Notes: a model not told the origin generated them from the sequence alone. A DNA stretch of 64,000 bases from Candidatus Latescibacterota bacterium (GCA_965237675.1 OZ250150.1:64001-128000); one strand, 5' to 3'. Numbered from the stretch's first letter, positions 34,443 through 57,665 are shown. Made by a program: numbers and translations.

Positions 34443-34733
34443 ATGTACAGAGATGAAGCCCTCAAACTACTTCGAGCGCACAAGGCGACACTCGTACAAC
34501 GCTTTGGCGTCGTAGACCTCGCCCTGTTCGGGTCAATCGTCCGCAATCGAGCCACAGGCAACAGCGACGTGGACGTCCTGGTGAAGTTCGACTCGCCGGC
34601 GACGTCGAAGCGGTATTTTGGCGTGCAGTTCTACATCGAAGACCTGCTGGGGAGTCCGGTTGATCTGGTAACGGACAAAGCGTTGCGGACGGAGATGCGT
34701 CCATATATAGAGCAGGAGATGATCAGTGTCTGA
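34443..34733 (+). CDS. Nucleotidyltransferase family (MntA-like) antitoxin, orphan
   Basis: LALFGSIVRN...SDVDVLV...LLGSPVDLVT; 96 aa. Confidence 0.88.
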   Translation: MYRDEALKLLRAHKATLVQRFGVVDLALFGSIVRNRATGNSDVDVLVKFDSPATSKRYFGVQFYIEDLLGSPVDLVTDKALRTEMRPYIEQEMISV

Positions 34734-34765: not shown

Positions 34766-34791
34766 GTAGGGGCAACCCTTGTGGTTGCCCT
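34766..34791 (+). repeat. GTAG-type REP palindrome
   Basis: gtaggggcaacc-cttgt-ggttgccct. Confidence 0.7.
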
Positions 34792-35007
34792 CATCCTGGC
34801 GCGCATATCGACGATTGACTTCGCCAAGAAGTATAGCTATCCGAATTCAGATGACGGCTGAGTGTTGCTCGTGCTGCCAGACACAAGACCCCGATGGCCG
34901 AACCCATCGGGTCTTTTTTTGTTACTCACAGCGCGCCGCAACTGTCGCAAAATGCGACACATTTGGCTCAGGGTTGGATTGACCGCTAATTACGATTCTT
35001 GTATATT
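34781..35007 (+). promoter_or_regulatory. Repeated regulatory module copy 1 (hairpin+T tract, palindrome, sigma70 promoter)
   Basis: Hairpin 34885-34920; TGTCGCA-aaa-TGCGACA 34943-34959; TTGACC(34979)-17-TATATT(35002). Confidence 0.8.
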
Positions 35008-35075
35008 GCGTGCTCTATAGGATAACCTATAAGGATCGGTTCAATCGGGCGAGTTTACGAAATATGATTCTCGCA

Positions 35076-35270
35076 GTGACTGAGATTTACCGCACTCCGG
35101 AACACAAGGCGCGCGACAAAATCGACGCGATGTTGAATCAGGCCGGCTGGAAGGTGCAGTCAAGAAACAAGCTTGTCGATCGCAAGGGCGGCATGGGGCA
35201 GATGTACAAGTTATTCGGTGACCGGATGGATGACGTAATTGACGAATTGAATAAGGCTTTGGCGGCGTAG
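35076..35270 (+). pseudogene. hsdR: Internally deleted mini-hsdR (N- and C-termini fused in frame)
   Basis: TEIYRTPEHKARDKIDAMLNQAGWKVQSRNKL matches the N-terminus, and DRKGGMGQMYKLFGDRMDDVIDELNKALAA the C-terminus, of the hsdR at 36933-39698. Confidence 0.9.
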
Positions 35271-35381
35271 GTCTGTCTCTCTGCTCAGTTTCTTTACATA
35301 ATGGTATTTGTCTTGGTATTTTACAGTAAGTAAAGCGATTTATATGAAATCCTGACGTGATCAACATCATTGGAGAAGATC

Positions 35382-35618
35382 GTGCCCAAAGTCAGCGCCA
35401 AGCGACAGATAACGCTACCGGCTGATCAGTGCCGTTTAGCCGGCATTGAGCCAGGCGACGAGTGCCTGAGTTTCGTGGCCGATGGCCGCATCACCATAGT
35501 CCGCCAGCGGCCCGGCAGCGCCTGGGGATGCCTGGCGTATCTTGAAGGAGATCCGACGGTTTCAGACGGGGAGTCGCGCCAGGACGCCATTGAAAGAAAG
35601 CGGAACCAGACGCCTTGA
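35382..35618 (+). CDS. AbrB/MazE/SpoVT family DNA-binding protein (antitoxin-like)
   Basis: KVSAKRQITLP...AGIEPGD; GTG start after ggag. Confidence 0.85.
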   Translation: MPKVSAKRQITLPADQCRLAGIEPGDECLSFVADGRITIVRQRPGSAWGCLAYLEGDPTVSDGESRQDAIERKRNQTP

Positions 35619-35635
35619 TCGCAATGAGGTTATCA

Positions 35636-36424
35636 ATGCCACAAGATTTAATTACATATCACCGAAATATGAGTAATGCTGAAAATATAGAAAAAGAAGC
35701 GGAGTATTATATAGTTGAATTAACTGCAACTGAAGATTATAAAATCAGTATAGCAACTGATACAATGTTCATTGGATGGACTGAGAATGAACCCCCAGGT
35801 TCTATTCACAAAGAACTAAGAACTGCGTGTCCAGTTTTCGCTGAGAAAGCGCTTATAGCATGGAAAAAACTCGATAGAATTGGAGTCGTTGTTAACACTC
35901 GTCGTGATGTGCAGGTTTTCTCAATTTTTGGTGGGTCAGCAGTTGTAAAAAAGAGTATGGCTGAGAAACATTTCCATTCAATTTTTGATAAGGTCGAATT
36001 TGTACATATAGGCTTAGGAAGATCTGTTCCTGTTAAAAATATAGATTCATCATATCTACGTCCAGCTCCGACTCAGAAATTACGCATGAATGTGCTAAAA
36101 CGGGACAAATTTCGTTGTAGGTTGTGTGGCCGCAGCGTTGAAGATAATACTGACATAGTATTGAATCTACATCATGTAATTTCTAAGAAATTCGCAGGTT
36201 TGACAAAAGACGATAATCTAATAACACTCTGTCACACCTGCCATGGTGGTCTTGATACATACAATGATTTTTCAATAATTGGAAATTTCCCTGAAACACA
36301 TCGAGAATTTAACAAGTTTGCGGATAAATTGAAAGATTATCCAAACGAGTACGCTAAAAGTGTTGCTCGATATCGTGAGATAACTTTTGAGATAATTCGA
36401 AATTTGAACCCTAAACGAGGATGA
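35636..36424 (+). CDS. HNH endonuclease domain protein (AT-rich gene)
   Basis: VLKRDKFRCRLCG...LHHV...NLITLCHTCH. Confidence 0.85.
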   Translation: MPQDLITYHRNMSNAENIEKEAEYYIVELTATEDYKISIATDTMFIGWTENEPPGSIHKELRTACPVFAEKALIAWKKLDRIGVVVNTRRDVQVFSIFGGSAVVKKSMAEKHFHSIFDKVEFVHIGLGRSVPVKNIDSSYLRPAPTQKLRMNVLKRDKFRCRLCGRSVEDNTDIVLNLHHVISKKFAGLTKDDNLITLCHTCHGGLDTYNDFSIIGNFPETHREFNKFADKLKDYPNEYAKSVARYREITFEIIRNLNPKRG

Positions 36425-36639
36425 GGTTTTGCAGATTGAATGTTGGTAATGATCGCCCATATGCGGCCATTGCGGGATCGGCATAATCAGGCCGGATCAT
36501 TCGCCTCAATTCGGGTCTTCCCAAGCGGACCGAGGCACAAGTAATAGGCACGCATTCGCAAACAGCTTGAATGCGGGCGACAGACTACGGTTTGATTTTG
36601 TTCAACTTTCTTCCTTTTGCCTTCATCCTTTTGCCTTTT

Positions 36640-36864
36640 GTGGTTGCCCTCGTCCTGGCGCGCATATTGAAGATTGACTTCGCCACGAAGTAGCGGTAAA
36701 CGGTTATAACTGACGGCTGCGTGCTGCTCTTGATGCGTGACAGATGACCCCGATGAACGATCTCATCGGGGTTTTTCTGTGTCGCACAACGCGCCGATAA
36801 CGTCGCAAAATGCGTCACTTTCTGCTGGGGCCGCATTGACCAACAATGAAGATTTTCGTATATT
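36640..36864 (+). promoter_or_regulatory. Repeated regulatory module copy 2 (upstream of hsdR)
   Basis: Hairpin 36746-36777; CGTCGCA-aaa-TGCGTCA 36801-36817; TTGACC(36836)-17-TATATT(36859). Confidence 0.8.
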
Positions 36865-36932
36865 GCGTGCTCTATAGGATAACATATATAGTTCGATCGA
36901 ATTGGGCGAGTTTACGAAATAGGACGTTCGCA

Positions 36933-39698
36933 GTGACTGATATTTACCGTACTCCGGAACAAAAGGCGCGCGACAAGATCGACGCGATGTTGAATCAGGC
37001 CGGCTGGAAGGTACAGTCAAAAAACAAGCTTGACTTCAGCGCGGGCCTCGGTATCGCTGTCCGTGAGTATCAGACGGATGTTGGCCTAGCGGACTACGTT
37101 CTCTTTGTTGACAAGCATGCCGTCGGTGTTGTCGAGGCCAAGCGGGAGGACTGGGGCCACAATATCACCACCGTCGAATTGCAGTCCGGCACCTATGCTG
37201 CTGCCAAACTCAAATGGGTCAACAACCAGGAACCCCTGCCATTCGTTTATGAATCTACCGGTGTGCTCACGCGGTTTACCGACGGACGCGACCCGAAACC
37301 CCGCTCCCGGGAAGTCTTCAACTTTCCCCGGCCAGAGACGATACCGGGGTGGCACACAAATGAGCGCTCGCTTCGTGCCAAGCTGCGAAAGCTCCCTGAG
37401 CTCAACCCTGCCGGACTCAGGGCGTGCCAGATAAGCGCTATCGAGAATCTCGAGATATCATATAAAAATAACCGACCGCGCGCACTCATTCAGATGGCTA
37501 CTGGCTCGGGCAAGACCTACGCCGCCATCACGTCGATCTACCGGCTGCTCAAACACGCGGACGCCAAGCGGATTCTCTTTCTCGTAGACACCAGGCATCT
37601 GGGTGAACAAGCCGAACAGGAATTCATGGCGTACGTACCCAATGACGACAACCGTAAATTCACCGAACTCTACAACGTCCAGCGCCTTAAATCGTCCTTC
37701 GTCGCCAGGGATAGTCAGGTCTGCATCAGCACCATTCAGCGCATGTATTCGCTTCTGAAGGGCGAGGAGATGGACGAATCCGCGGAAGAGATAAATCCGG
37801 CGGAGTTGACGCTGCGCAGACAGCCGATGCCGGTCGTCTACAACGAGAAGATTCCACCCGAGTTCTTTGACTTCATCATCATTGACGAATGCCACCGCTC
37901 GATCTACAACCTCTGGCGCCAGGTCCTGGAATACTTCGACGCATTCCTCATTGGCCTCACCGCCACGCCGGACAACCGCACCTACGGGTTCTTCAAGAAA
38001 AATGTCGTAAGCGAATACACTCATGAACAGGCCGTCGCAGACGGCGTCAACGTCGGCAACGAAGTCTATGTGATCGACACGGAGAGGACAGAGCGCGGCG
38101 GCCAGATCAGGGCACGCCAGGAGGTCGAAAGACGGGAGCGTCTCACGCGGCGAAAGCGCTGGGAGATACAAGACGAAGCTCTGGTTTATACCAGGCAAGA
38201 ACTGGATCGTGCCGTCGTCAATCCCGACCAGATCCGTACCGTCATCCGCACCTTCCACGATAAACGGCATGAGATATTTCCGGGCCGCAACGAAGTTCCG
38301 AAGACGTTGATTTTTGCCAAAACCGATAGCCATGCCGACGACATCATCCAGACCGTGCGGGAAGAATTCGCCCAAGGCAACGAGTTCTGCAAAAAAATCA
38401 CCTACCGAGCACAAGAGGATCCGAAATCTGTCCTTGCCCAGTTTCGTAACGACTACTACCCGCGCATAGCTGTCACCGTGGATATGATTGCCACGGGTAC
38501 TGACGTTAGACCACTCGAATGCCTGCTCTTTATGCGTGACGTGAGGAGCCTCAACTATTTTGAGCAGATGAAGGGACGTGGCACTCGCACACTCGACCAC
38601 GACGATCTCAAGAAAGTCTCGCCGTCCGCTGTAAGTGGCAAGACCCACTATGTGATTGTCGACGCCGTCGGCGTCACAAAATCACTAAAGACTGCCAGCC
38701 AGCCGCTCATCACCAATCCTTCGGTGTCACTCAAGGATCTTGCAATGTGCGTGATGATGGGCACCCACGATGAGGACACGGTGAGTTCCCTCGCCGGACG
38801 GCTCGCCCGACTCAACCGACAGCTCGACCAAGATGAGCAGGATCGTATAAGAAATAAGGCCGGAGGGATCGAACTCACCAACATCGTCGGCGATCTGCTG
38901 GCGGCTATCGACCCGGACCGGATTGATGCGAAGGCTCGCGAAATTGAAGCTGTGCCCGACGGCGACGACCCGTCACCACCCGCCCGCTTCCAGGCGCGTG
39001 GAAAGTTGGTAGGCGAGGCGGCCAGGGTTTTCAACGGCGAGTTGATCGAATTGATCGACTCGATTCGCCGCGACAAAGAACAGACCATCGACCATGACAG
39101 CCTGGATACCGTACACCGCGCCGAATGGGAAGGCGACCCGCAGGAGAATGCAGAGGGCCTTGCCAAAGACTTCCGGGATTATCTCGAAGCCAATCGCGAC
39201 GATATCGAAGCGCTGACCATCTTCTACGCCCAACCGCACAGGCGCAGAGAACTGACATTCGAGATGATCCGCGAAGTATTCGAAAAGCTCAAGAGCGATC
39301 GGCCTCAACTGGCGCCTTTGCATGTCTGGCAGGCATACTCCGTACTGGATGAATACAACGGCAGGCAACCGGCCAGTGAACTGACCGCGCTTGTGGCTTT
39401 GATCCGCCGCGTCTGCGGGATTGACGAGAAAATCTCAACTTATTCGGATACCGTTCGCCGCAACTTCCAAAATTGGATTATGACACACCACAGCGGCAGC
39501 GGCGAAAAATTCCACGAAGTGCAAATGGACTGGCTGCGCATGATCCGCGACCACATCATCACCTCGTTTCATCTGGAACGCGACGATCTGGACATGGCGC
39601 CATTCGATAGCAAGGGCGGATTGGGGCAGATGTACAATCTCTTCGGCGACACGATGGATAATGTGATTGATGAGTTGAATGAGGCATTGGCGGCATGA
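36933..39698 (+). CDS. hsdR: Type I restriction endonuclease subunit R (EcoEI-like C-terminus)
   Basis: ADYVL...VVEAK nuclease motif, MATGSGKT, IIDECHRS, TATP, QMKGRGTR; GTG start. Confidence 0.95.
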   Translation: MTDIYRTPEQKARDKIDAMLNQAGWKVQSKNKLDFSAGLGIAVREYQTDVGLADYVLFVDKHAVGVVEAKREDWGHNITTVELQSGTYAAAKLKWVNNQEPLPFVYESTGVLTRFTDGRDPKPRSREVFNFPRPETIPGWHTNERSLRAKLRKLPELNPAGLRACQISAIENLEISYKNNRPRALIQMATGSGKTYAAITSIYRLLKHADAKRILFLVDTRHLGEQAEQEFMAYVPNDDNRKFTELYNVQRLKSSFVARDSQVCISTIQRMYSLLKGEEMDESAEEINPAELTLRRQPMPVVYNEKIPPEFFDFIIIDECHRSIYNLWRQVLEYFDAFLIGLTATPDNRTYGFFKKNVVSEYTHEQAVADGVNVGNEVYVIDTERTERGGQIRARQEVERRERLTRRKRWEIQDEALVYTRQELDRAVVNPDQIRTVIRTFHDKRHEIFPGRNEVPKTLIFAKTDSHADDIIQTVREEFAQGNEFCKKITYRAQEDPKSVLAQFRNDYYPRIAVTVDMIATGTDVRPLECLLFMRDVRSLNYFEQMKGRGTRTLDHDDLKKVSPSAVSGKTHYVIVDAVGVTKSLKTASQPLITNPSVSLKDLAMCVMMGTHDEDTVSSLAGRLARLNRQLDQDEQDRIRNKAGGIELTNIVGDLLAAIDPDRIDAKAREIEAVPDGDDPSPPARFQARGKLVGEAARVFNGELIELIDSIRRDKEQTIDHDSLDTVHRAEWEGDPQENAEGLAKDFRDYLEANRDDIEALTIFYAQPHRRRELTFEMIREVFEKLKSDRPQLAPLHVWQAYSVLDEYNGRQPASELTALVALIRRVCGIDEKISTYSDTVRRNFQNWIMTHHSGSGEKFHEVQMDWLRMIRDHIITSFHLERDDLDMAPFDSKGGLGQMYNLFGDTMDNVIDELNEALAA

Positions 39699-41260
39699 GT
39701 CGTGAGCTAGGATCTCGATGGTCACTACCCAATAGCTGGGTCTGGACCAAGCTATCAGCACTCGGCGACATCATCGGGGGTGGTACGCCGTCGACCAAAG
39801 AACCTACATATTGGACAGATGAGATCAATTGGATTTCGCCATCTGACTTGACCGGGCACTCGGCAAAAACCATCAAGAGAGGGACAAAGAGCATTTCCAA
39901 AAACGGTCTCACGAACAGTTCTGCGAAAGTGATGCCAGCCGGTAGCGTACACTTTTCCACACGCGCGCCAATCGGCTACATCGTCATCAGCTCGGAACCA
40001 CTAGCCACAAACCAAGGTTTCAAAAGCCTCGTTCCCGCGCCTGGTATTTTCAACGCGTACGTCTACTACTACCTGATCGCATCACGAGACTACGCGCGCA
40101 AACGCGCGAGTGGTACGACGTTCTTAGAACTATCTGGTAAAGCCTTTGGCGACCTTGCGATACCTCTCGCTCCAGCAGCCATGCAACACAAAATCGTCAC
40201 AAAGATCGAGGAGCTATTTTCCGAACTGGACAAGGGCATCGAGAGCCTGAAGGCGGCGCGGGCGAAGCTCAATATCTACCGCCAGGCCGTGCTCAAGCAC
40301 GCCTTCGAAGGCAAGCTAACGGCCGAATGGCGCGAAGAGAATAGGGACAAGCTCGAGACGGCCAGGCAATTGCTCGCTCACAACAAGCAAATGTGGGAAG
40401 CCCGCTATGAAAAGCAGCTTCAGGAGTGGAAGGCCGACGTCAAGAAATGGGAGAAAGGCGGCAAGTCAGGCAAGAGGCCAGCGAGACTCATGAGACCAAC
40501 TGAAGTCGTCCCGTTAGAGGGCAAAATACGCGAGGCGTTGCCCGCCATTCCTAAATGCTGGGAATGGTTAAAATTGAAACACATCGGACGGATTGAAACA
40601 GGCACGACACCCTCAACGAAGATTCGTGAGAACTACGGGGGAAGCCTTCCGTTTATCAAACCTACAGATTTGGATCAAGGCGGGCATGTTCGAACTGCAC
40701 GAGACCACCTTTCCCAATTGGGCGAAGAATCCGCACGTGTCATTCCGGCGGGCTCCACCTTGGTTACATGTATCGGGGCAACGATAGGGAAAACGGGATT
40801 TGCAGTAACGCAGTGTGCAACCAATCAACAGATTAACTCAGTCAGCCCTTGTGTCGAATTCGAACCCAGATTTGTTTATCTCCAGATGGTCGCTCCGTTC
40901 CTTAACAGTAAAATCAAAACTGACGCATCCGCGACTACACTTCCGATCTTGAACAAATCCAAATTTGGTGAACTCCCATTTGTTCTCTGCTCCCTTCCAG
41001 AGCAACTCGAGCTTGTCCGGATTGTGGAAGAGGGAATTGTGGCGATCGAGCGAAGCGAGCGTGAGATCGATTCGAACTTAAATCAAGTGGAGACGCTACG
41101 TCAATCTATCCTTAAGAAGGCTTTCTCAGGAGAGTTGGTCCCGCATGATCCACATGACGAATCAGCGTCGGTTCTTTTGGATCGAATCAGAGCAGTTAAA
41201 TCTGCACGGTCTCAAGTCAAAAAGCGAACAAAACGCAGACGCGAGAAGGCAACAGCATGA
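39695..41260 (+). CDS. hsdS: Type I R-M specificity subunit
   Basis: Two TRDs (LPNSWVW..GGTPST..NQGF; IPKCWEW..GTTPST..NQQI) with conserved LKHAFEGKL / LKKAFSGELVP helices. Confidence 0.95.
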   Translation: MSRELGSRWSLPNSWVWTKLSALGDIIGGGTPSTKEPTYWTDEINWISPSDLTGHSAKTIKRGTKSISKNGLTNSSAKVMPAGSVHFSTRAPIGYIVISSEPLATNQGFKSLVPAPGIFNAYVYYYLIASRDYARKRASGTTFLELSGKAFGDLAIPLAPAAMQHKIVTKIEELFSELDKGIESLKAARAKLNIYRQAVLKHAFEGKLTAEWREENRDKLETARQLLAHNKQMWEARYEKQLQEWKADVKKWEKGGKSGKRPARLMRPTEVVPLEGKIREALPAIPKCWEWLKLKHIGRIETGTTPSTKIRENYGGSLPFIKPTDLDQGGHVRTARDHLSQLGEESARVIPAGSTLVTCIGATIGKTGFAVTQCATNQQINSVSPCVEFEPRFVYLQMVAPFLNSKIKTDASATTLPILNKSKFGELPFVLCSLPEQLELVRIVEEGIVAIERSEREIDSNLNQVETLRQSILKKAFSGELVPHDPHDESASVLLDRIRAVKSARSQVKKRTKRRREKATA

Positions 41261-42844
41261 CCGGCAAACTGCCAATAAACATCGATCACCTGCTTCGCCA
41301 TCGCCACATCGAAGGCGAACGCGTCGAGTACAAAACGGGCTGGAACCCGCAGAGCGTGCTGCACGCCATATGCGCCTTCGCCAACGACTTCCACAATCTG
41401 GGCGGTGGATACGTCGTCCTCGGCGTCGAGGAACAAAATGGCCGCCCAGTTTTGCCGCCCAAGGGCATCAGGCCCGATGCCATCGATGCGATACAGAAGG
41501 ACCTGCTGAATCTGGGCAATTCGCCGATCCAGCCCCATTATCACCCGCTCACGGGAACCTACGACATCGACGGGCGGAACATTCTCGTGCTCTGGGCGCC
41601 CGGCGGCGAAACCCGTCCCTATAAAGCCAAAGTGATTCTGAGTGCGCAACGCAGCGAGTGGGCTTACTACATCCGCAGACACAGCAGCACGGTTCGCGCC
41701 AGGGGTCAGGACGAGCGTGAACTGCTCAGTCTGGCGGCCACGGTACCTTTTGATGACCGCATATCGCCAGACTGCATCTCTCGACGACCTGTCCCATCGG
41801 CTGATCCGTGAGTTTCTAGGGGAAATCGGCAGCGAACTGGCATCGGAAGCAGTGGGCCTGTCTGTTGAGGACCTGGGCAGGCGCCTGAACATCGTCGGAG
41901 GCCCGCCCGAAGCGATGTACCCCAAGAACGTCGGGCTGCTTTTCTTCAACGACCGCCCGCACGACTTTTTTCCGGCAACCCAGATCGATGTCGTGTGGTT
42001 TCCGGATGGGCCGGGCGGAGATCAGTTCGAGGAGAAGGAGTTCCGTGGGCCGTTGTCCATCATCCTTAGCGAGGCGATCGGCTACATTGAGCGGAACTAT
42101 CTGAAGGAAACCGTCGTCAAGTATCCCCACAAGCCGGAGGCCGAGCGATTCTGGAATTTCCCGATTGGCGCCATTGAAGAGGCGCTGGTGAACGCCATCT
42201 ACCATCGCTCATACGAAGAGCGGGAGCCGGTGGAAGTTCGGATCACCCGCGAAGAATTGCTGGTCTTGAGTTATCCCGGGGCGGACCGCTCCATACGTAT
42301 GGATGACTTCAAGAAGGGGCAGGCCGTGAGCAGGCGCTACCGTAACCGGCGTATCGGTGAGTTTCTGAAAGAACTCGACCTCGCCGAGGCCCGCTCAACC
42401 GGGGTGCCGAAGATTTTCCGGTCCATGCGGCAGAACGGCTCACCGGAACCCATGTTCGAAAGCGACGAGGATCGGACCTGGTTTCTGGTGCGATTGCCAG
42501 TGCATGAACGGGCTTCTCTTGCGGAGACCGAACAAGATACCGGACAAGATAAGTCATTGATAAATAAGAAGAATGGTCAGGATACCCCACAAGATACCCC
42601 ACAAGATGTCGGACAGGTCTCCGATCATGTCGAGCAACTCGTGGTTGTACTCACCAGAGCGATGAGCCGCGCCCGTATCCAGGCAGCATTGGAACTCAAA
42701 GACCGGCACCACTTCCTCGCGTCGTACCTAAAGCCCGCCCTCAAGGCGGGGCTGATTGAAATGACCCTCCCGGACAAGCCCACCAGTCGCCACCAACGCT
42801 ATCGCCGAACCGCTCAAGGCGAGGCGCTCGCTGAACAAATCTAA
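41257..42844 (+). pseudogene. AlbA_2/Schlafen + RecG-C-like ATP-binding + HTH protein, frameshifted near 41761
   Basis: ERVEYK..ICAFAN..GGYVVLGV in first frame; EALVNAIYHR..YRNRRI..PDKPTSRHQRYR in second; removing one A at gaccgc-a-tatcgc gives PFDDR-YRQTAS. Confidence 0.85.
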
Positions 42845-42960
42845 CGGAAGAATGCCCCCACATGAACACCGCTCCCATCATCTCCAAAGTCTGGAGCTTC
42901 TGCACCACCCTGCGCGATGACGGGGTGAGCTATGGCGACTACCTCGAGCAACTCACCTAT

Positions 42961-48499: not shown

Positions 48500-48920
48500 C
48501 TCTTGCAGTCGCAACATCGACAGACATTCGAATTCTCGTCCCGAAAGCTTTGCCTTTCAGTATCCGCAGAACAGAAGGACCTCGGCAAAGTGGCTCAAGC
48601 AACCCAGCTACAAACGTCCTTGTCAGGGAGATAGATTTATGGTCATGAAATCTATCGGTACGGTCAGCCAGTTCTCGGACTCCGTTCGGAAACAAGCTTA
48701 CGAGTGCAAATCACAAACTCATTGAACTCGTCGTCCAGGGCGTTGAATTTCAGGACGGAGACATCAAATCCGCCGCTTAATCCATCAGGATACGCTCGCC
48801 GCCATCCACAACATTTGACAATATCTCTTCGAATCTTGGATGCGCCGCTGGCCTTTAGCAAAACTGGACGCGTAGTTGGTCGCAAACTCGAAACTGGGTT
48901 GTTGATAAGCCAAGTTGGCA

Positions 48921-51900
48921 ATGGAAAACACACCTAATCTCATGCAACCAACCAACGACATCATTCTTCCATTGGATGCCTTCGTACGTTCCGTCGGCGT
49001 CCGGCGTGCCACACAGCATGCATTCTTTATTGGTGCCGGCGCGTCCGTGAGTTCAGGCGTTCCATCGGCTGAAGCATGCATCTGGGAATGGAAACGAGAG
49101 CTTTTTCTTACCAATAATCCCGGTCTCGAAAAACAGTTTTCAGAATTGTCCCTCCCGAGTGTCCAAGCAAGAATACAACAGTGGCTTGATCGGCAGGGAA
49201 TTTATCCCGAGCGAGGATCATCCGAAGAATACGGAATCTACATCGAACATTGTTTTCCGATTTCACATGACCGCCGCGCGTTTTTTCAGGAGAAGATACG
49301 TGATGCCCGTCCGTATATCGGGTATCAGCTATTGTGCCATCTTGCCGTAGCCGACCTGGTTCGTTCGATATGGTCTACAAACTTTGACGGTCTAGTCGCG
49401 CGTGCGGCAGCTCGATTTAGTCTCACACCGCTTGAGGTCGGAATCGATTCGCAGGACCGGCTACCACATCAGGTAAACAAAGGCGAACTGCTCTGTGTTT
49501 CCTTGCACGGTGACTACCGATACGACGAACTCAAGAACACGCCCGATGAGCTTCAGAGACAAGAGAAAGACCTGGGCAACGCCCTTATCGACGAAATACG
49601 CTCAAAGCCGGTGGTCGTTTGTGGTTATAGCGGACGTGACAACTCCATTATGGATTCTCTACAGACGGCGTTCAACGAGGCTGGCGGCGGCACGTTATAC
49701 TGGTGCGGGTACAGCGATGGCAATATTCCAGACCGAGTAGATACGCTCATACGCCATGCCCGTAAAAACGGGACAGAAGCCTATTACGTCCCCTCTTTGG
49801 GTTTTGACGACTTAATGACCCGCCTTGCGTTTCATTGCCTGGAAGGCGACCGCCGAGAAACCGCCCGAAAGGATATCGTCGACATCGCACCAGCCAGCCT
49901 GCTTGAACGGCAGCCATTTCAGATGTCTGAGTTCAATGTCAACACGATGATCAAGAGCAACGCTTTCGAGATCCACTGTCCAAGCGAGGTGCTTTCATTT
50001 GACCTCAACACATGGCCTAAGGAGCGAGTCTGGTTCTGGCTGCGTGAGAAGATCGGCGGACGGCCGGTAGTCGCGGTACCATTCAAGGGAAAAGTGCTTG
50101 CGCTTGGACTCGTAGATGACATCAGGGACGTCTTCGATGACAGAATCAAGGGAACGATCGATCGAACTCCAGTGAGCCCGGACGAACTGCGTTATGAGGA
50201 CGGCGCCGTCGTCGGGCTGATGCGTCAAGCGCTCGTGCGTTCCCTCGCACATGCCGCCGGCGTCTCCACGGATGGAAAGTCCGAGTTGTGGTTGAACGAC
50301 CCAGTAAAGAAACAGCGGCAAGGAGACCAACTATGTCTCGCGTACGATTCGGTTCTAGTATTCCTGCGACGGTTTGGCGACACCCAATATGCCGTTTTTA
50401 AGCCTTCGATCAGAGTGTTCGACGAGAACGGATCACAAGTTCCTCGAAACATCGCTGAACCTATAAGGCTGGGCATTCTCGGCTATCAGCACAACAAGCC
50501 GTTCAACGGCGCCGTGAACAAATGGCGAAACCTTCTCTTCTCCAATTCAAACGAGAAAATCGTTACTTTCGGATTCCCGTACGGATCTGACTCGAGCTTT
50601 AGATTCCGCATCAGGCGTTCACCTGTGTTCGCACAGATTGGAATGCCGCGCGGTGGAAGAATTCCATCTATTCCTCAAAGTCTCGTACCGCTCCTAAAAT
50701 ACAAAGGGATGGAGCTTTCCGAACCTGAACTAATGTTCTGCGACAGGTCGGGTACCGGCACGGCGACTGATGTACATCCGATTCGCGGCATTCTATCCAA
50801 TCGTCCTTACGATTATTCGCTAACTCTCAAAGGGCTCGCCCCTTCGCTCCGCATCGGTGTGATCTGCCCCCGATCCGAATCCACAGTTTTTGCGAGATAT
50901 CTGGAAAAAGTAAGGCAGCAGCATCGACCGGCTCAGTCCGAACGGGACTATCTGTTCGACTATCCGGGATTTCAGCAGGCTTACGCGCTGCCAATAGAAA
51001 CTCCAGAACCGGGAGATCCTGGATGGATTATCGTCAATGAGCCGTCCGGGGACTGCCAACAAGCCGAGGCCGTATCCGTTGCACGTCAAATCACAAGCAC
51101 TCTCGAAGCTCTGTTTTCTTCTCAATCGCCACACGTCGTCCTGATTTTTTTCCCTACACGATGGGAGCACCTGCGCGGATACCGCGACGACAACGAGCGT
51201 TTCGATGTTCATGATTTCGTGAAAGCCTACGCTGTTCAACGTGGGATTCCTACGCAATTCCTGACTCAGGAGACACTTTCGGATAGCCAGCAGTGCCGGG
51301 TCTGGTGGTGGCTGTCGCTCGCCCTATACGTTAAGGGAATGCGCACTCCCTGGATATTGGACGGGCTCGACGACGAAACTGCTTTTGTTGGGCTCGGATT
51401 TAGCCTTGATCACAGCGCCGAAAAGGGGGCGCAGGTTGTCCTCGGTTGCAGCCACATCTACAGTTCGCGGGGTGAAGGACTGCAATACCGCCTTAGCAAG
51501 ATTGAGAATCCGCTCATTCGTGGCAGGAATCCCTTTATGTCGAGGGACGATGCACGCAGAACCGGTGAAACCATCCGCCAACTTTTCTTTGAGGCAAGGT
51601 CAAGGCTGCCTAGTCGGGTAGTTCTTCACAAACGGACACCGTTTTTAAGGCAGGAACGCGAGGGCTTGGTTGATGGACTCGGTGAGGTAGGTACAATTGA
51701 CATGATAGAAATACAAGTGGATCACGCGCTTAGGTATGTCGCTTCGAAGACACTTCCGAACGGCGGGATGGATGAAGATAACTATCCGGTGCGGCGTGGA
51801 ACCGTAATGAAACAGGACGACTTCTCGTCTTTGCTTTGGGTACACGGTGCAACTGCCGCCGTCAATCCCAGACTCAGATATTACCAGGGCAAGAGACGAA

Positions 51901-52115
51901 TCCCTGCACCGCTCGGTCTTCGCCGGCACGTGGGCAGTACGTCGCTCGATCAACTCAGCACCGAGATTCTTGGCCTATCAAAAATGGACTGGAATTCCTT
52001 TGACCTGTACAGCAAAATGCCGGCTACGCTTCAGTCGTCAGGTGAAATTGCCCGCATCGGTTCACTGCTAGAGCGATTTGGCGCGTCCTCTTACGACTAT
52101 CGGCTGTTTATTTAG
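48921..52115 (+). CDS. Single-chain SIR2-APAZ-short prokaryotic Argonaute (SPARSA-type fusion)
   Basis: SIR2: FIGAGASVSSG, STNFD, LHGD, CGYSGRD; MID: HDFVKA..GIPTQF, LYVK; PIWI: AFVGLGFS, VVLHKRT, ILGLSKMDWNS..PATL (catalytic Asp residues absent). Confidence 0.92.
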   Translation: MENTPNLMQPTNDIILPLDAFVRSVGVRRATQHAFFIGAGASVSSGVPSAEACIWEWKRELFLTNNPGLEKQFSELSLPSVQARIQQWLDRQGIYPERGSSEEYGIYIEHCFPISHDRRAFFQEKIRDARPYIGYQLLCHLAVADLVRSIWSTNFDGLVARAAARFSLTPLEVGIDSQDRLPHQVNKGELLCVSLHGDYRYDELKNTPDELQRQEKDLGNALIDEIRSKPVVVCGYSGRDNSIMDSLQTAFNEAGGGTLYWCGYSDGNIPDRVDTLIRHARKNGTEAYYVPSLGFDDLMTRLAFHCLEGDRRETARKDIVDIAPASLLERQPFQMSEFNVNTMIKSNAFEIHCPSEVLSFDLNTWPKERVWFWLREKIGGRPVVAVPFKGKVLALGLVDDIRDVFDDRIKGTIDRTPVSPDELRYEDGAVVGLMRQALVRSLAHAAGVSTDGKSELWLNDPVKKQRQGDQLCLAYDSVLVFLRRFGDTQYAVFKPSIRVFDENGSQVPRNIAEPIRLGILGYQHNKPFNGAVNKWRNLLFSNSNEKIVTFGFPYGSDSSFRFRIRRSPVFAQIGMPRGGRIPSIPQSLVPLLKYKGMELSEPELMFCDRSGTGTATDVHPIRGILSNRPYDYSLTLKGLAPSLRIGVICPRSESTVFARYLEKVRQQHRPAQSERDYLFDYPGFQQAYALPIETPEPGDPGWIIVNEPSGDCQQAEAVSVARQITSTLEALFSSQSPHVVLIFFPTRWEHLRGYRDDNERFDVHDFVKAYAVQRGIPTQFLTQETLSDSQQCRVWWWLSLALYVKGMRTPWILDGLDDETAFVGLGFSLDHSAEKGAQVVLGCSHIYSSRGEGLQYRLSKIENPLIRGRNPFMSRDDARRTGETIRQLFFEARSRLPSRVVLHKRTPFLRQEREGLVDGLGEVGTIDMIEIQVDHALRYVASKTLPNGGMDEDNYPVRRGTVMKQDDFSSLLWVHGATAAVNPRLRYYQGKRRIPAPLGLRRHVGSTSLDQLSTEILGLSKMDWNSFDLYSKMPATLQSSGEIARIGSLLERFGASSYDYRLFI

Positions 52116-52175
52116 GCCACGGTTAAGGTACCAACGTAAGTGTCAGCGATTCAATTGCAATTCATCGGAGGCATA

Positions 52176-52529
52176 ATGAAGCTCACTAAGGTACGCGTTA
52201 CAGAATTCCAAAGCATCCAGGATTCGACCGAGTTCGACATCGATGATGTCACCTGTCTGGTCGGAAAGAATGAAGCAGGTAAAACCGCGCTTTTGAAGGC
52301 TCTCTACCGGCTAAAACCCATAATTGAAGGAGACGGTCGCATTGATGTGACCGATGACTATCCGAGTCGATCGGTTGTCGACTATGAGTCGGACGTAGCA
52401 ACTGAACGCCGAGAGCCTGCAACAGTAGTTCAGGCCACGCCCTTCCGCCTCGCAGGAGCGTCGCTTGTGGGCGCCCGGCCTCCGGCGGCGGGGCTCCACC
52501 GTAGCAATTCGCGGCATGTCGGCATCTGA
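52176..52529 (+). pseudogene. Truncated, diverged 5' copy of the downstream ATPase gene
   Basis: First 88 codons align with the 52599 gene (about 65/88 identical by eye, LVGKNEAGKT); homology stops after VVQAT near 52439. Confidence 0.88.
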
Positions 52530-52598
52530 TTTTTTGCGAATCAAATTCAGTTCCAAAGTAAGTGTGAGCGATTCAATTTGCAATTCATCGGAGGCACA

Positions 52599-54563
52599 GT
52601 GAAACTCTCAAAGATACACATTACTGAATTCCAGAGCATTCTGGATTCTAACGAGTTCGAAGTCGATGTTGTCACATGTCTGGTCGGTAAGAATGAAGCA
52701 GGCAAGACCGCATTATTGAAGGCGTTGTACCGTTTGAATCCCATCGTCGAGGAGGACGGCGAATTTGATGTAGCGCTCGACTATCCACGGCGATCCGTAA
52801 GCGACTACGAGGACGACGTTGAAGCGGAACGCCGAGAGCATGCGCAGGTTGTTCAAGCCACGTTTGTGTTGGAGCCCGACGACGTCACGGCCGTCGAGGA
52901 AGTCTTTGGACCTGGATGTCTAAGAGACGAAATACCAACCTTGATACTCCGCAAAGGATTCTCAAACGAGGTCCAATTCAGCGGCCTGAATGTGGACCGT
53001 GAGGCAGCCATCGAGCACCTTGTCGAGACGGCTGGCCTTCCTCAACCGCTTATCGAACGGTTACTGGATTTGAAGAACGTCGACGCGATGTTGGAGGTTC
53101 TTGCTACTGCCGAGCAGACCGAGTCTGTGATGGAGCTAACGCCCAAGCTTACGGAAATTTCCGAGCAAGGCGTTTCTGACGTCGCCTACAACAGTATTCT
53201 CTATGACCGTATTCCGAGATTTCTTTACTTCGACGAGTATTACCAGATGAAGGGTCAAGACAATGTCGACCTGCTCAAGCAGCGCGCTGCTAGCGGTACC
53301 CTTGAGAATTCCGACTATCCGCTCCTGGGCTTAATAGAGCTTGCAGGTCTCAATCTCGACCAACTCACTGATCCGCATAGGACGGAAACCCTAATCTCAA
53401 GGCTTGAAGCTGCTGAGAACCGGCTCACCGACAAAGTGCTTACCTATTGGTCTCAGAACCGACATCTTAGGATGAAGTTTGACATCCGTCCAGCGCAACC
53501 CGAGGACCCGGAAAATATGACCACGGGGATGAATATCTGGGGACGGGTGCAAGACACCAAACATATGGTGAGCACGGCGCTTAGTACACGTTCCCGTGGC
53601 TTTGTCTGGTTTTTCTCTTTTCTCGCTTGGTATTCGCAGCTACGGAAGAAAGGGGAGAACATCATTCTGCTGTTAGACGAACCAGGCCTCTCTCTTCATG
53701 CAAAAGCTCAGGCAGACCTCCTTCGCTATTTCGAAGAGGATCTCAAACCCCATCACCAACTCATCTACACAACCCATTCACCGTTCATGGTTGATTCCGC
53801 ACATTTTGATCGCGTGCGCATTGTCCAGGACCTGAGCATTGAGTCAAATTTCGATGACCTGCACGATGAGGTCCAAGAAGGAACCAAGGTGATCACCGAG
53901 GTCCTCGACGCAACACCGGATAGTCTGTTTCCTCTTCAGGGTGCCCTTGGTTACGAGATTTATCAGACGCTTTTCATTGGCCCAAACTGCCTGGTTGTCG
54001 AGGGGGTCTCCGACCTTCTATACATTCAGACCATTTCGGCCGTTCTTCAGGGGATTGGTAAGGAAAGCCTGAGTAATGATTGGACTATAACCCCTGTTGG
54101 CGGTTCTGACAAGGTACCAACCTTTGTTGCTCTGATTGGTGCGCAGACCAATTTGAACCTCGCGGTACTTATTGATTACCAGAAGAAAGATAGCCAGAGG
54201 ATCGAAGATCTGTTCAAGAGAAAGCTACTGAAAAAGCAGAATGTCTTCACCTATGCAGACTATGTCCAAGGTTGCGAAGCCGACATCGAGGATATGTTTG
54301 AACCTGAGTTCTATCTGAAGCTGGTGAACCGAACCTATTGCTTATCCGTTTTATTGACGGATCTACCGGGAAATCATCCACGAATCACCCATCAATTAGA
54401 AGAATATCTGCAAGGCAGGCCACTTCCAAACAATGAGAAGTTCAACCACTATCGACCCGCTCGCCACTTTAGCGAAAATATCGGTTGTTTTGAGAGTGAA
54501 TTGAGCGAATCGGTGCTTGGTCGATTCGAGAAAGCCTTCAATAGACTGAACAAACTGTTGTAG
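52599..54563 (+). CDS. ABC-type ATPase + TOPRIM-like protein (OLD-like ATP-dependent nuclease)
   Basis: GKNEAGKT, RSRGF, LLLDEPG, YTTHSPF, LVVEGVSD, DIED. Confidence 0.85.
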   Translation: MKLSKIHITEFQSILDSNEFEVDVVTCLVGKNEAGKTALLKALYRLNPIVEEDGEFDVALDYPRRSVSDYEDDVEAERREHAQVVQATFVLEPDDVTAVEEVFGPGCLRDEIPTLILRKGFSNEVQFSGLNVDREAAIEHLVETAGLPQPLIERLLDLKNVDAMLEVLATAEQTESVMELTPKLTEISEQGVSDVAYNSILYDRIPRFLYFDEYYQMKGQDNVDLLKQRAASGTLENSDYPLLGLIELAGLNLDQLTDPHRTETLISRLEAAENRLTDKVLTYWSQNRHLRMKFDIRPAQPEDPENMTTGMNIWGRVQDTKHMVSTALSTRSRGFVWFFSFLAWYSQLRKKGENIILLLDEPGLSLHAKAQADLLRYFEEDLKPHHQLIYTTHSPFMVDSAHFDRVRIVQDLSIESNFDDLHDEVQEGTKVITEVLDATPDSLFPLQGALGYEIYQTLFIGPNCLVVEGVSDLLYIQTISAVLQGIGKESLSNDWTITPVGGSDKVPTFVALIGAQTNLNLAVLIDYQKKDSQRIEDLFKRKLLKKQNVFTYADYVQGCEADIEDMFEPEFYLKLVNRTYCLSVLLTDLPGNHPRITHQLEEYLQGRPLPNNEKFNHYRPARHFSENIGCFESELSESVLGRFEKAFNRLNKLL

Positions 54564-55018
54564 AACCCGGTGACTGAATTTGCGGAGGTTTCTCCTCGGA
54601 TCCGTGCGTCCTATACTTGACGGTTGTTGGCAATGTTTATAGAGCTCCAAACTTGGATGGCGTTCCAAGAGAACATGCCTCGCTCGTCGCAATTCGCCAC
54701 TCATCCACCTACCACCCGTGCGACGCTGCATTTATCCCAACAGGAAGAACATAAGTTGTTGCTGTCCGCATTCCTATAATTCACTAGTACAAGATTCCCA
54801 GTCAAGATTCGCGAGGACTCGCTTTCGTATAGAACAGAGCCTTTGATGCGGTTATTCGTGTCGCCCTTTCAGAAAAAGTAATCATGAAAAAACCGATGTT
54901 CAACTGTGCGGCAACCACGGCAATTATTCGTCATGGCGCCGCTTTCGATATTGGGCAGTCAGCGAGCATAATCCAGGACTCTATTTCCCGTAAAGGCAGC
55001 TGAAAAAGGGAGGCCGTC

Positions 55019-55577
55019 ATGTACGCCCTATACGACAAAGTCTCGAAGAGGGGTTCATATCACTACGGTTTTCGCGAAAAAATATCGCTATTTGGGTGCA
55101 TTGTGGGCAAAATACCACGGTTACTCAGACGACGACTATCAGATGACTCAACAGAACCGTTACCCTGGCACGTGGATGTTGAACGCGGACTGCAGGAACG
55201 CGGAGTGGATAATCAGACATTTGTTTTTGACCTAAAGCCGAACAGCAAAAGACCGAATATCTCTCTATTATGAAGTAGTAGACGTGTGGGGTTACTCCGA
55301 CTCGGGATGGACACCCATTCTCCTGCATCTTCGAGGCCTGTTGATTGGCGAAGACCCGAGGAATTTTGACAGAGGACATTTCGTTCGCGAACGGAAGCAG
55401 CTTGATGATCCTATTTTTTCGATGATGCACCTTAGAGGAACGGTAAAGTATGGCCAACTTGAGGGTCCTTGGACCCCTCCGGGGCCAAGTCCGACGAATT
55501 CTGTGATACATTGGCCAGACGCTTATGAATTTTTCCAACAGCAAGCTCACCAGTTGATAAAGAAGCTGACGACTTGA
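55019..55577 (+). pseudogene. Hypothetical protein, probably one gene with a frameshift near 55268
   Basis: GGGAGG RBS; removing one T at cta-t-tatgaa joins ..KRPNISL to YEVVDVWGYSDSGWTP.. Confidence 0.55.
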
Positions 55578-55715
55578 GTTCTGGATCTAAGGCAATTCGT
55601 GAGGCCTATTCGCGATCTGATCGTGGTCGCCCCGTCCCTATTGATTGTCACGTCGCAGACATTCGACAAATAGACGCTCTCCTAACCAGCAATTGGCCGC
55701 TAATGAAACCGACAA

Positions 55716-55985
55716 ATGGACGCTAACCGTTCCCTGTTTCCCCGCTCGCTGGAACCCGTAATCCGGGAGGCTTTGGTCGACACGCCGGTGGTCTGTCTGC
55801 TCGGACCGCGGCAAAGCGGGAAAACGACGCTCGTGCAGCAGCTCGCGCCCGATCGTGCGTTCGTCAGCTTGGACGAGCATAGCTACTATCAGACCGCCCA
55901 GGCCGATCCGGCCGGTTTCGTCGCCAGCCTGCCGGTGGCAGTGACCCTGGAGCAGTTCGGTCTGGGAAATGTGCGTAGTCTATAG
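55716..55985 (+). pseudogene. Truncated AAA_14/DUF4143-type ATPase
   Basis: ALVDTPVVCLLGPRQSGKTTL...ADPAGFV, ends just before Walker B. Confidence 0.8.
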
Positions 55986-56175
55986 GACAATCCGCTTTCC
56001 GGTCCGAACCGAGTATCCAGTTTCGTCTCTTTTGCGCTCGGCGAGGTAGTTCAAGTGGAAATTACAAATCGCAAGAGTTAAACTACGTACGTTACCTACG
56101 CCTGCCTACGACTAACGCAGCCAAGGACGAATTCCAATGGCGCGTGTGCCAGTACAACAACTGAAAAAAGGAAGT

Positions 56176-57123
56176 ATGCCGCGTCTCTACAGCCGCCAGC
56201 GCCTGTTACTCGGGTTGCTCGACGCGATTGGCGGAGACATGAGCAATACGGACTTTCAGAAGCTTCTATTTCTCTACTGTAAAGAGCTTTCATCACACGG
56301 GGCAACTCAAGGACTTTACGACTTTGTCCCCTACCATTATGGCGCATTCTCGTTTACCAGCTATGCCGACCGCCGCCGCCTGGTGGATTGGGGGCTGCTT
56401 GTGGATAACGACCAGAAATGGGTCCTAACAGAAAACGGGAGTAATATCGCGGGGAATGCAACAAGCAGCGCGATTCGTTCGTTCGCGTATCGATATCGAA
56501 GCGTGCGAGGGGATGCGCTCGTTGCGGATACCTACCGGCGGTATCCGTATTATGCGATACGCAGTGAAATTGCAGACCAGGTCCTCCAGGACGATCAGCC
56601 GACACTTGATCGGATTGAATCCACTCGCCCTCAAGCAGCACCGTCGCGGCTTTTCACCATCGGTTACGAAGGGCGAACGCTGGAATCTTATCTCAATCTG
56701 CTTATTCGCGAAGGCGCGACCCTATTGTGCGACGTGAGACGGAACGCGATCAGCCGAAAGTACGGCTTCTCGAAGACCACACTTGAACGGGCTTGCTCTG
56801 GAGTAGGAATTCGTTACGAACATCTTCCGGAGCTTGGAATAGCTTCCCGTCGACGCCGAGGTCTCAAGACGGAAGCGGATTTCAAAAACCTTTTCGAGAC
56901 CTATGAACAGAAGATCCTGCCAAATCAAGGCGATGCCTTGGAGAAAATCCGAGCTTGGTTGAGGTCGGGCGAGTCCGTCGCACTCACCTGTTTCGAACTT
57001 CAGGCCGACCAGTGCCATCGTCATTGCGTCGCTAACGCGCTCGAAAAGAAAACCGACCAGGACGATCCTGCAGAACGAGAAGGTCGACCCTTCCTCCCCC
57101 ACGACGGCGTAAAACACCTTTGA
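56176..57123 (+). CDS. DUF488 domain protein with N-terminal wHTH/SocA-like domain
   Basis: FQKLLFL..YDFVPYHYGAFS; LFTIGYEG, LCDVR, SRKYGFSK, YEHLPELG, CFE..CHR. Confidence 0.85.
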   Translation: MPRLYSRQRLLLGLLDAIGGDMSNTDFQKLLFLYCKELSSHGATQGLYDFVPYHYGAFSFTSYADRRRLVDWGLLVDNDQKWVLTENGSNIAGNATSSAIRSFAYRYRSVRGDALVADTYRRYPYYAIRSEIADQVLQDDQPTLDRIESTRPQAAPSRLFTIGYEGRTLESYLNLLIREGATLLCDVRRNAISRKYGFSKTTLERACSGVGIRYEHLPELGIASRRRRGLKTEADFKNLFETYEQKILPNQGDALEKIRAWLRSGESVALTCFELQADQCHRHCVANALEKKTDQDDPAEREGRPFLPHDGVKHL

Positions 57124-57125
57124 CC

Positions 57126-57315
57126 GACTTCGCCAGGACGTAGTGCTATCCGGTTTTAGCTGACGGCGGAATGTTGCTCGTACTGGCAGACACAAGACCC
57201 CGATTAACAATTCGTCGGGGTCTTTTCTGTGTCGAACAGCGGCCCGAGATCGTCGCAAAATGCGACGCATTTGGCTCACGGGTGAATTGACCGCCAACGT
57301 CGATTTTCATATATT
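57126..57315 (+). promoter_or_regulatory. Repeated regulatory module copy 3 (upstream of sacsin-like gene)
   Basis: Hairpin 57194-57228; CGTCGCA-aaa-TGCGACG 57251-57267; TTGACC(57287)-17-TATATT(57310). Confidence 0.8.
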
Positions 57316-57377: not shown

Positions 57378-57665
57378 ATGAGGATTATATCCAACAAAGG
57401 TACGGACCGCATGGTCCATCTCATCCGGCTCTCGCTATCGCCCGGGCCAATGTTGCAGAGGGTGTAAAGAATGACCGACGGCTTTCCGTGTGCGCTCGAC
57501 CACATCCGATCCATAGCGGACTCGGAATCAGCTAAGGAACGGCTCTTCGAGCTACACAATAGACTTCAGAATCGCTTTAAAATCAAGACTTTATCCTCTT
57601 TCTTAATTCGGACTTTACACAGTCACTGCATCTCTCACGCTCGCAATTGCAAATGTCAGGCATAA
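57378..57665 (+). pseudogene. Two short ORFs resembling N-terminal remnants of defence helicase genes
   Basis: 57378-57467 MRIISNKGTDRMVHLIR.. (recalls SNF2/PLD helicase starts); 57471-57665 ..LDHIRSIADSESAKERLFE (recalls type ISP R-M starts); from memory only. Confidence 0.35.

Follow-up and report, generated by a model that had tools for sequence, protein, structure and literature searches.

In the window, a 64,000-nt stretch of the genome of a Candidatus Latescibacterota bacterium (C1:64001-128000 of its 5.6-Mb assembly; GCA_965237675.1), three diverged copies of a regulatory module stand at the heads of gene cassettes of a defence island. The core of each copy contains, in this order, a hairpin resembling an intrinsic terminator, two putative operator positions (O1 and O2, the latter a palindrome, GTCGCAAAATGCGWC), and the predicted promoter TTGACC-17-TATATT. 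We propose, with a probability of roughly 0.6, that the copies constitute a set of paralogous cassettes, each placed at the head of an operon in a hypervariable defence island of a single genus and each serving as a regulated socket behind which the cargo turns over. The proposal is built on features observed directly in the genomes, namely the anatomy and block-wise conservation of the module, its distribution, the diversity of its cargo, the stubs of earlier first genes that remain behind it, and the synteny of the island.

Anatomy and conservation of the module

The first-pass annotation, made from the window alone, had described three diverged copies with a common order of boxes, located at 34781-35007, 36640-36864 and 57126-57315. 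Both the sequence and the alignment bear this out. The mean column identity of the three aligned copies was 79%, and when copy 1 was used as the query in a search of the whole genome, copy 2 was matched with 76% identity (E 1.7e-39) and copy 3 with 77% identity (E 1.1e-34). A fourth, partial copy was found outside the window at C1:4380480-4380642 (search match, C1:4380531-4380635). The module without its 5' repeat of ~85 nt is hereafter called the core; it occurs four times in this genome, each time upstream of and co-oriented with a gene. Alignments were made of 18 copies and then of 14 core copies. The parts of the window copies, including a repetitive extragenic palindromic (REP) hairpin and several open reading frames (ORFs), are as follows.

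34766-34849, + strand: copy 1, 5' part, with the GTAG-REP hairpin (GGGCAACC..GGTTGCCC, 34770-34790) and an extension with the TTGACT box (34815-34820); a dispersed repeat, outside the core.
34850-34886, + strand: copy 1, conserved segment 5' of the hairpin, without consensus structure (identity over 14 copies, RNAalifold).
34887-34920, + strand: copy 1, intrinsic-terminator-like hairpin GACCCCGATGG/CCATCGGGTC followed by a T run (terminator scan, fold, stem identity, pair counts).
34923-34937, + strand: copy 1, O1, degenerate upstream operator position, 21 bp 5' of O2 (14-copy alignment).
34943-34959, + strand: copy 1, O2 palindrome TGTCGCAAAATGCGACA, centred about -63 from the predicted transcription start (motif searches, block conservation).
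34979-35007, + strand: copy 1, predicted promoter TTGACC-17-TATATT (promoter scan, 10/12 consensus positions).
35076-35270, + strand: copy 1 cargo, hsdR stub with codons 1-33 fused to the last ~31 codons by an internal deletion (blastn against intact hsdR; Pfam EcoEI_R_C at the C-terminal end).
36640-36709, + strand: copy 2, 5' part, with the REP 3' arm and an extension with the TTGACT box (36674-36679) (sequence, alignments).
36710-36779, + strand: copy 2, conserved segment (36710-36745) and terminator-like hairpin with T run (36746-36779), 11-pair stem (fold, terminator scan).
36781-36816, + strand: copy 2, O1 (36781-36795, GTCGCACAACGCGCC) and O2 (36802-36816, GTCGCAAAATGCGTC) (sequence, 14-copy alignment).
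36836-36864, + strand: copy 2, predicted promoter TTGACC-17-TATATT (promoter scan).
36934-39698, + strand: copy 2 cargo, intact EcoEI-type hsdR, likely start GTG at 36934 after AGGA (Pfam, PADLOC).
57126-57195, + strand: copy 3, remnant of the repeat extension, overlapping the end of the DUF488 gene, and conserved segment (sequence, alignment).
57196-57228, + strand: copy 3, hairpin GACCCCGA/TCGGGGTC and T run (fold).
57231-57266, + strand: copy 3, O1 (57231-57245, degenerate) and O2 (57252-57266, GTCGCAAAATGCGAC) (motif search, 14-copy alignment).
57287-57315, + strand: copy 3, predicted promoter TTGACC-17-TATATT (promoter scan).
57378-57467, + strand: copy 3, stub 1, a 29-codon ORF whose first 23 residues resemble the N-terminus of an SNF2/HKD gene (15/23 identical, E 8e-8; alignment).
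57471-57551, + strand: copy 3, stub 2, first 27 codons of a Type ISP restriction enzyme (23/27 identical, E 8e-13; alignment).
57670-63999, + strand: copy 3, present cargo, a sacsin-domain giant gene (Tiamat TmtA-like) running past the window end (Pfam SACS, PADLOC TmtA).

Conservation over the 14 core copies was block-wise. The highest identities were those of the -10 hexamer (1.00, invariant in all 14), the two hairpin arms (0.97 and 0.91) and O2 (0.92). The segment before the hairpin (0.75), the loop (0.74), O1 (0.64) and the stretches between the blocks (0.44-0.66) were less conserved.

A promoter scan called TTGACC-17-TATATT in all three window copies. As in sigma-70-type promoters, which have TTGACA-like and TATAAT-like hexamers 16-18 nt apart, 10 of the 12 hexamer positions agree with the consensus, and the 17-nt spacing is kept in the 10 of 14 core copies that retain TTGACC. 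The first ATG of the hsdR ORF (36846) falls within the spacer of the copy 2 promoter. Immediately after the -10 of the hsdR-type copies lies a second inverted repeat (35010-35035 and 36868-36890; TATAGGATAACCTATA in copy 1), partly kept in the genus as YTATRGGATAA, which could be a second operator or a leader hairpin.

The hairpin has the GC-rich stem-loop and following T run of an intrinsic terminator. It was called by a terminator scan in two of the three window copies, and copy 3 has the same fold with a longer loop, too long for the scan. Pairing was maintained in 97.6% of the cells over the 14 genus copies. Compensatory changes had been claimed for this hairpin; the pairing is indeed kept, but the covariation is thin, since of the nine pairs five are invariant and a single one has changed on both sides. 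What is conserved is the sequence of the stem, and this sequence has no second occurrence elsewhere in the genome. The hairpin is better read as an insulating terminator than as part of a small RNA, and its termination, like the promoter activity of the module, is a function predicted from sequence. A compensatory change had also been proposed at the flanks of the palindrome (T..A versus C..G). This holds for copies 1 and 3 but not for copy 2, which is asymmetric (C..A).

The GACTTCGCCA/TTGACT box belongs to the 5' ~85 nt, which consist of GTAG, the hairpin GGGCAACC..GGTTGCCC and the extension with this box, and which constitute a separate dispersed repeat missing from several orthologous copies. 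Positions 1-46 (91%), 1-62 and 1-81 of the copy 1 query matched other sites in the genome, and the repeat is absent from the copies in four other genus genomes, as seen in the 18-copy alignment and in nhmmer matches, which begin at profile position 85-86. The 5' GTAG is a family feature of REP elements and of REP doublet-forming hairpins (REPINs). The module's 5' third shares with them the GTAG and a GC-rich palindromic hairpin recurring at many intergenic sites. This likeness is confined to the 5' part, whereas the core was found only at module loci.

Distribution, cargo and turnover at the island

A DNA search of 60 relatives detected the element in 13 of the 14 same-genus genomes and in one of the 46 genomes outside the genus, the latter as a weak, short match. 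The first-pass annotation had proposed a covariance model, a genome scan and a list of downstream genes. The model built from the core gave 27 matches in 13 of 15 genus genomes, for which the downstream genes were tabulated. Furthermore, a strict pattern joining the hairpin arm, O2 and the -10 was searched among 185,579 species. It yielded nine stretches in eight records, all of them metagenome-assembled genomes titled Candidatus Latescibacterota (two: Gemmatimonadota), and none outside this group among these species. Plasmid and phage collections contained no module match. Terminal inverted repeats and many dispersed whole-unit copies, the marks of insertion sequence (IS) ends or of miniature inverted-repeat transposable elements (MITEs), were not found for the core with its four occurrences in the genome. 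The Rfam search that had also been proposed returned no family at the gathering threshold and no match in the whole window; the best sub-threshold match, on five module loci, was anti-hemB with 24.1 bits against a gathering threshold of 49.5.

The genes behind the copies were typed by Pfam and PADLOC scans. EcoEI-type hsdR operons follow window copy 2 and copies in four other genomes. The other cargo types are HsdM-HsdS-OLD, EcoR124-type HsdR-HsdS, a Type ISP enzyme, the TmtA-like gene of window copy 3, an SNF2/HKD-DUF4391-PDC-S15-type III methylase system (two genomes), and a C5 methylase with HATPase_c_3 and a type IV-like nuclease. Recognisable restriction or defence genes follow 12 of the 15 strongest covariance-model matches (E ≤ 6e-26). 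The remaining three comprise window copy 1, with its hsdR stub and an HNH protein, one copy with cargo of unknown type, and one without cargo before the next copy. The 12 weaker matches are of an unknown-operon type, partial copies, or copies before small unknown ORFs, except for one heading the C5-methylase system. These results support the earlier proposal of a portable expression platform before defence cassettes.

Behind the hsdR-type copies, the similarity to intact hsdR (blastn) stops at varied points and unrelated genes come next each time. The end points are codon 18 (two genomes), codons 33-34 (window copy 1 and one genome), codon 38 (one genome) and the start codon (one copy), and hsdR stubs of codons 1-18, 1-33/34 or 1-38 stand ahead of unrelated cargo in five genomes. 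The copy-3-type modules of all four genomes have a common leader and an ATG-AGG-ATT start in the alignment, and in two of them an SNF2/HKD protein of 1072-1079 aa truly begins there. Of this protein, the window and one other genome retain only ~23 codons, followed by the Type ISP start. The Type ISP enzyme is intact in that other genome; the one in the window breaks off after 27 codons, with TmtA next. Because the stubs are stacked behind copy 3, the order of occupants can be read as the SNF2 system, then Type ISP, then TmtA.

The surroundings of the island were compared with five other genus genomes (20-kb flanks, blastn). All five have the same left flank, corresponding to window ~14-34.7 kb up to the nucleotidyltransferase gene at 34443-34733, and the same right flank, at about 70-84 kb on the window scale and thus beyond the window end. 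Copy 1 is the first feature past the left flank. Most module copies sit in one syntenic defence-island hotspot.

The module had also been suggested to act as a recombination anchor for cassette exchange. Repeated replacement behind a persistent cassette is recorded in the stacked stubs, but a dedicated recombinase did not emerge. The genome has five PF00589 matches, at 1.53, 4.73-4.76 and 5.37 Mb, none of them near the window (0.064-0.128 Mb), and the nearest of these tyrosine-recombinase matches is more than 1.4 Mb away. Since the breakpoints vary and no recombinase lies nearby, nothing points to site-specific exchange.

Other genes were observed in the window island. One is a SIR2-APAZ-pAgo fusion of 1066 aa (48915-52115), for which PADLOC gave a full-length pAgo match. 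Behind it come the two pieces of an OLD/GajA-like ATPase (52140-52529 and 52578-54563). The island also contains a DUF488 (PDC-M19A) gene. Within the type I operon of copy 2, an IS with a DDE_Tnp_1_4 transposase and a COG2865-like gene lie between hsdS and hsdM (43041-44405), and in a sister genome hsdM is directly 3' of hsdS. This arrangement may alter methylase expression.

The palindrome and candidate binding proteins

In the window copies O1, located 21 bp 5' of O2, is degenerate, whereas two genus copies have a complete palindrome at this position. O2 ends 19-20 nt 5' of the -35 in the three window copies, and the centres of O2 and O1 are near -62 and -83. In the 5.6-Mb assembly, GTCGCAAAATGCGAC has six exact matches; allowing one mismatch raises this to 21, where we estimate that chance would give ~0.2. 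GTCGCA-N3-TGCGAC was found 16 times, compared with 0-6 times for each other spacer between N0 and N11 and 0-1 times for the swapped order of half-sites. The outer T and A, which were not in the search pattern, are 81% conserved. The motif with a W-rich centre has 14 exact sites in this genome and 3-17 per genome in all 14 genus genomes, against 0-1 per genome in 46 genomes outside the genus; the reversed control gave none in the genus. Of the 16 exact sites sampled in two genus genomes, 12 have a counterpart in the present genome, which lies within 1.5 kb in the orthologous region (70-85% identity) and carries no more than two mismatches. As a motif, the palindrome is specific to the genus. 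Its spacer specificity and restriction to the genus agree with the first-pass idea of an operator whose regulator is encoded outside the window, and we regard it as a predicted operator.

Tandem palindrome pairs 19-21 bp apart were detected at five other loci. The genes near palindrome sites include several WD40 paralogues, an HsdM-DUF559 fusion, a type IIG-like methylase, an HNH_4 protein with RelB/YafQ, a Cas3/WYL/toxin-antitoxin region, an AraC gene and housekeeping genes. Two paralogous WD40 genes have tandem pairs ~15 nt past their stop codons (C1:331140-331175 and 343893-343928), a 3' location at odds with a simple operator role. A second dispersed repeat family of ~250-370 nt comprises a REP hairpin, the palindrome and ~190 nt with several hairpins, ending CCCTTTTTCTTG..CAAGAAAAAGGG. 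Its sites are C1:1546729, 1547620, 1568561, 1569111, 2791538, 3673786, 4380006, 1293946 and 986488. This family, which has no Rfam match, could be an unknown non-coding RNA or a mobile element.

Candidates for the binding protein were then considered among the proteins of the genome. The first-pass annotation had pointed to WYL-type regulators. Beside a Cas3 gene, near-identical BrxR-like genes of the helix-turn-helix (HTH)-WYL-WCX type are associated with the palindrome TGTCGCAACTATTGCGACA (C1:5509379-5509395 and 5513363-5513379). These two BrxR-like genes carry TGTCGCAA-N3-TTGCGACA, the module half-site at 5-bp spacing, ~40 nt before their start codons. Two more 5-bp-spaced sites lie at C1:5480489 and 5487550, near GmrSD and Nmad3 genes. 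Published BrxR boxes are 10-11-bp repeats with a 5-bp spacer, located just after the -10 and with the regulator gene adjoining (PMC9122601); the sites before the WYL genes have a spacing close to this. At the module, inverted repeats with the ~5-bp spacer of BrxR/WYL sites were not found, the centre being 3 bp. A WYL orthologue of at least 80% identity and full length is present in nine of the 14 genus genomes; the other five, in which the motif is kept, have lost it or have only fragmentary or broken versions, and orthologues of 58-81% identity occur in other genera without the motif. The WYL regulators were rejected as the binder on this distribution and on the spacing of their own operator. 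A third WYL protein was rejected as a helicase fusion.

Further candidates were rejected as follows. A sigma-54 activator contains GAFTGA, yet sigma-54 promoters are lacking at the sites. The lexA box is GAAC-N4-GTTC (GAACTAATGTTC) and only a related half-site precedes recA, neither with the palindrome, and LexA was discarded. The COG2865-like gene of the island (AlbA_2/HATPase_c_4/winged HTH) has 10 paralogues in the genome, and its island copy is intact in only two of six genomes. In the window it is split into two overlapping frames (41257-42844), in two sister genomes it is intact (531 and 547 aa), and three others have fragments. Small ORFs beside palindrome sites showed no DNA-binding Pfam family, even at E up to 1, and clustering of the ORFs neighbouring the sites gave repeats and WD40 paralogues with no recurrent small protein.

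Explanations weighed and relation to known systems

In the favoured reading, the hairpin would act as an intrinsic terminator that shields the cassette from transcription of the upstream gene. O1 and O2, 21 bp or two helical turns apart, would be operators for a dimeric, cooperatively binding protein, presumably genus-specific and encoded elsewhere in the genome. The near-consensus sigma-70-type promoter would drive the cargo, and the leader would supply the ribosome site and the first codons of the resident gene. Incoming defence genes would insert into the leading gene of the former cargo, within its first 18-38 codons, and thereby acquire its promoter and leader. In this way the cassette would persist through changes of cargo, with 5' stubs accumulating behind it. 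We lean, weakly, toward regulation by repression, given a promoter that already approaches the consensus.

Several points weigh against this reading. Termination, promoter activity, protein binding and the sign of regulation are all predicted functions. A 10-bp deletion eliminates TTGACC in four of the 14 core copies. The sites at -62 and -83 lie outside the core promoter, which makes simple steric repression not obvious, and every binder candidate that was tested failed. About six of the 27 matches head an operon of unknown function (274-aa family, SBP_bac_3 and Sel1) without a defence signature, whose 274-aa protein matched only DUF8168-like hypothetical clusters in a protein atlas. The high identity among paralogous copies could come partly from gene conversion. 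In addition, the palindrome lies within the second dispersed repeat family, whose ~9 copies have ~200 nt of flank in common next to REP hairpins, and some near-matches are inside genes, such as hisG and an addA-like gene. Part of the spread of the palindrome could therefore be due to repeat mobility and not to regulation.

In one alternative, the palindrome would be a REP-like or MITE-like repeat spread through the genus, with the module merely carrying a copy that is no operator. Its restriction to the genus, its ~200-nt shared flank in the second family, its frequent position 30-40 nt from GTAG-REP hairpins and the resemblance of paired sites to REPIN doublets would all be expected of such a repeat. 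However, O2 is the best-kept block between stretches at 0.44-0.58, its distance to the -35 is constant to within 1 nt in the window copies, orthologous positions retain their sites despite flanks of just 70-85% identity, and the spacer specificity with conserved outer T and A fits recognition by a protein. We consider this alternative unlikely. A ~70-nt small RNA had been raised as a possibility in the first-pass annotation. In the form considered here, with the pre-hairpin segment and the hairpin as a trans-acting RNA driven by its own promoter TTGACT-17-TATCCG, it gained no support and appears quite improbable. A single-stranded 5' part with a terminator hairpin and U tail is the usual layout of small RNAs, the TTGACT box is present at 17-nt spacing in the repeat-carrying copies, and fold z-scores were -2.1 to -4.6. 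Yet this box, the sole upstream promoter-like one, is part of the optional dispersed repeat, and four otherwise complete copies lack it; the putative -10, TATCCG, is without the final T. Moreover, neither a consensus structure nor covariation was seen in the 38 nt 5' of the hairpin (RNAalifold gave only a 3-pair stem), no Rfam family reached threshold, and the hairpin sequence is nowhere else in the genome. A peptide encoded by the pre-hairpin segment on either strand was also rejected, as judged by eye, with starts that are unconserved and T-run lengths that shift the frame. Ordinary paralogy, that is, similarity left over from duplication of the hsdR 5' region in a module without shared function as a unit, would explain why the similarity between copies 1 and 2 continues into hsdR, and most hsdR-type copies plausibly descend from one locus. 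But the same core heads three leader types and at least eight unrelated first genes, block-wise conservation is unlike neutral decay, and each paralogous type has orthologues in several genomes, so the types predate the split of the genus genomes. We give paralogy of this kind little credence.

Two further explanations invoke known machineries. O1 and O2 could be upstream activator sites of a sigma-54 enhancer-binding protein, for which the gene at C1:2055822-2057762 is the candidate. The 17-bp dyad (6-5-6) and the tandem arrangement are similar to NtrC-type sites. The activator gene is present in 14 of 14 genus genomes with palindrome-like sites and a TGGCAC-N5-GTGCA promoter upstream; these sites lie near -135, -255 and -274, all three in 10 genomes and two of them in four. 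Its recognition helix is IHRATL, compared with INRSTL in orthologues outside the genus. The gene forms an operon with a sensor kinase (C1:2055822-2058040). With its GAFTGA motif, however, the activator should need sigma-54 promoters, and a sigma-54-like promoter (GG-N10-GC) lies 30-400 nt 3' of only one of the 43 palindrome sites, compared with 2% of random positions. In the three window copies the scan detected none over this distance from O2, and none was seen by eye in the module and leader of copy 2. This explanation is very unlikely. An integron-like platform, with a recombinase that captures cassettes into one defined position downstream of the promoter, would account for a fixed promoter with changing cargo. 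We consider it extremely improbable, given the distance of more than 1.4 Mb to the nearest tyrosine-recombinase match and breakpoints at codons 18, 33/34 and 38 or at the start codon; no shared junction motif was found in the copy-3-type alignment, and attC-like ends were not searched for.

The favoured reading, operon-head cassettes with cargo turnover, may be extended to a broader principle, which we put forward only tentatively and hold to be doubtful as yet. This would be promoter capture without an integrase, in which a fixed terminator-operator-promoter socket under a genus-specific global DNA-binding protein expresses and co-regulates incoming defence operons, with the stubs recording former occupants.

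Several known systems bear a likeness to the module. Integron platforms combine a Pc promoter and attI with promoterless cassettes. Here too a resident promoter would express any cargo behind it, and the platform stays as the cargo turns over. By contrast, the module has no integrase nearby, its breakpoints vary inside the previous first gene, multi-gene operons are exchanged, and a 5' stub is left each time. Defence-island hotspots are located between conserved core genes, and the present island likewise is one syntenic locus with different defence systems in related genomes; it differs in that a conserved regulatory cassette is repeated at each operon head and records earlier occupants. The controller (C) proteins of type II restriction-modification systems bind tandem palindromic boxes, and their genes lie within the controlled operons. 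Tandem palindromic boxes upstream of a restriction-operon promoter are common to both, but no C gene stands behind the module and the module motif is genome-wide. The BrxR/CapW regulators (winged HTH-WYL-WCX) have palindromic boxes at several promoters of a mosaic defence island, with one regulator for unrelated systems (PMC9122601). Compared with that description, the module sites span 15-17 bp around a 3-bp centre and are placed 5' of the -35; no regulator gene adjoins them, and the motif has 3-17 exact sites per genome.

How newly acquired defence genes gain expression and regulation in a new host is poorly understood. The locus suggests a simple answer, namely to land behind a resident promoter that is already regulated. 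The stubs are a rare ordered record of defence turnover, from the SNF2 system through Type ISP to Tiamat. The palindrome, being shared, suggests a single regulator for many unrelated immune systems in a phylum without cultured members. If its binding protein is found, it would be a further master switch of bacterial immunity beside the BrxR/CapW-type proteins.

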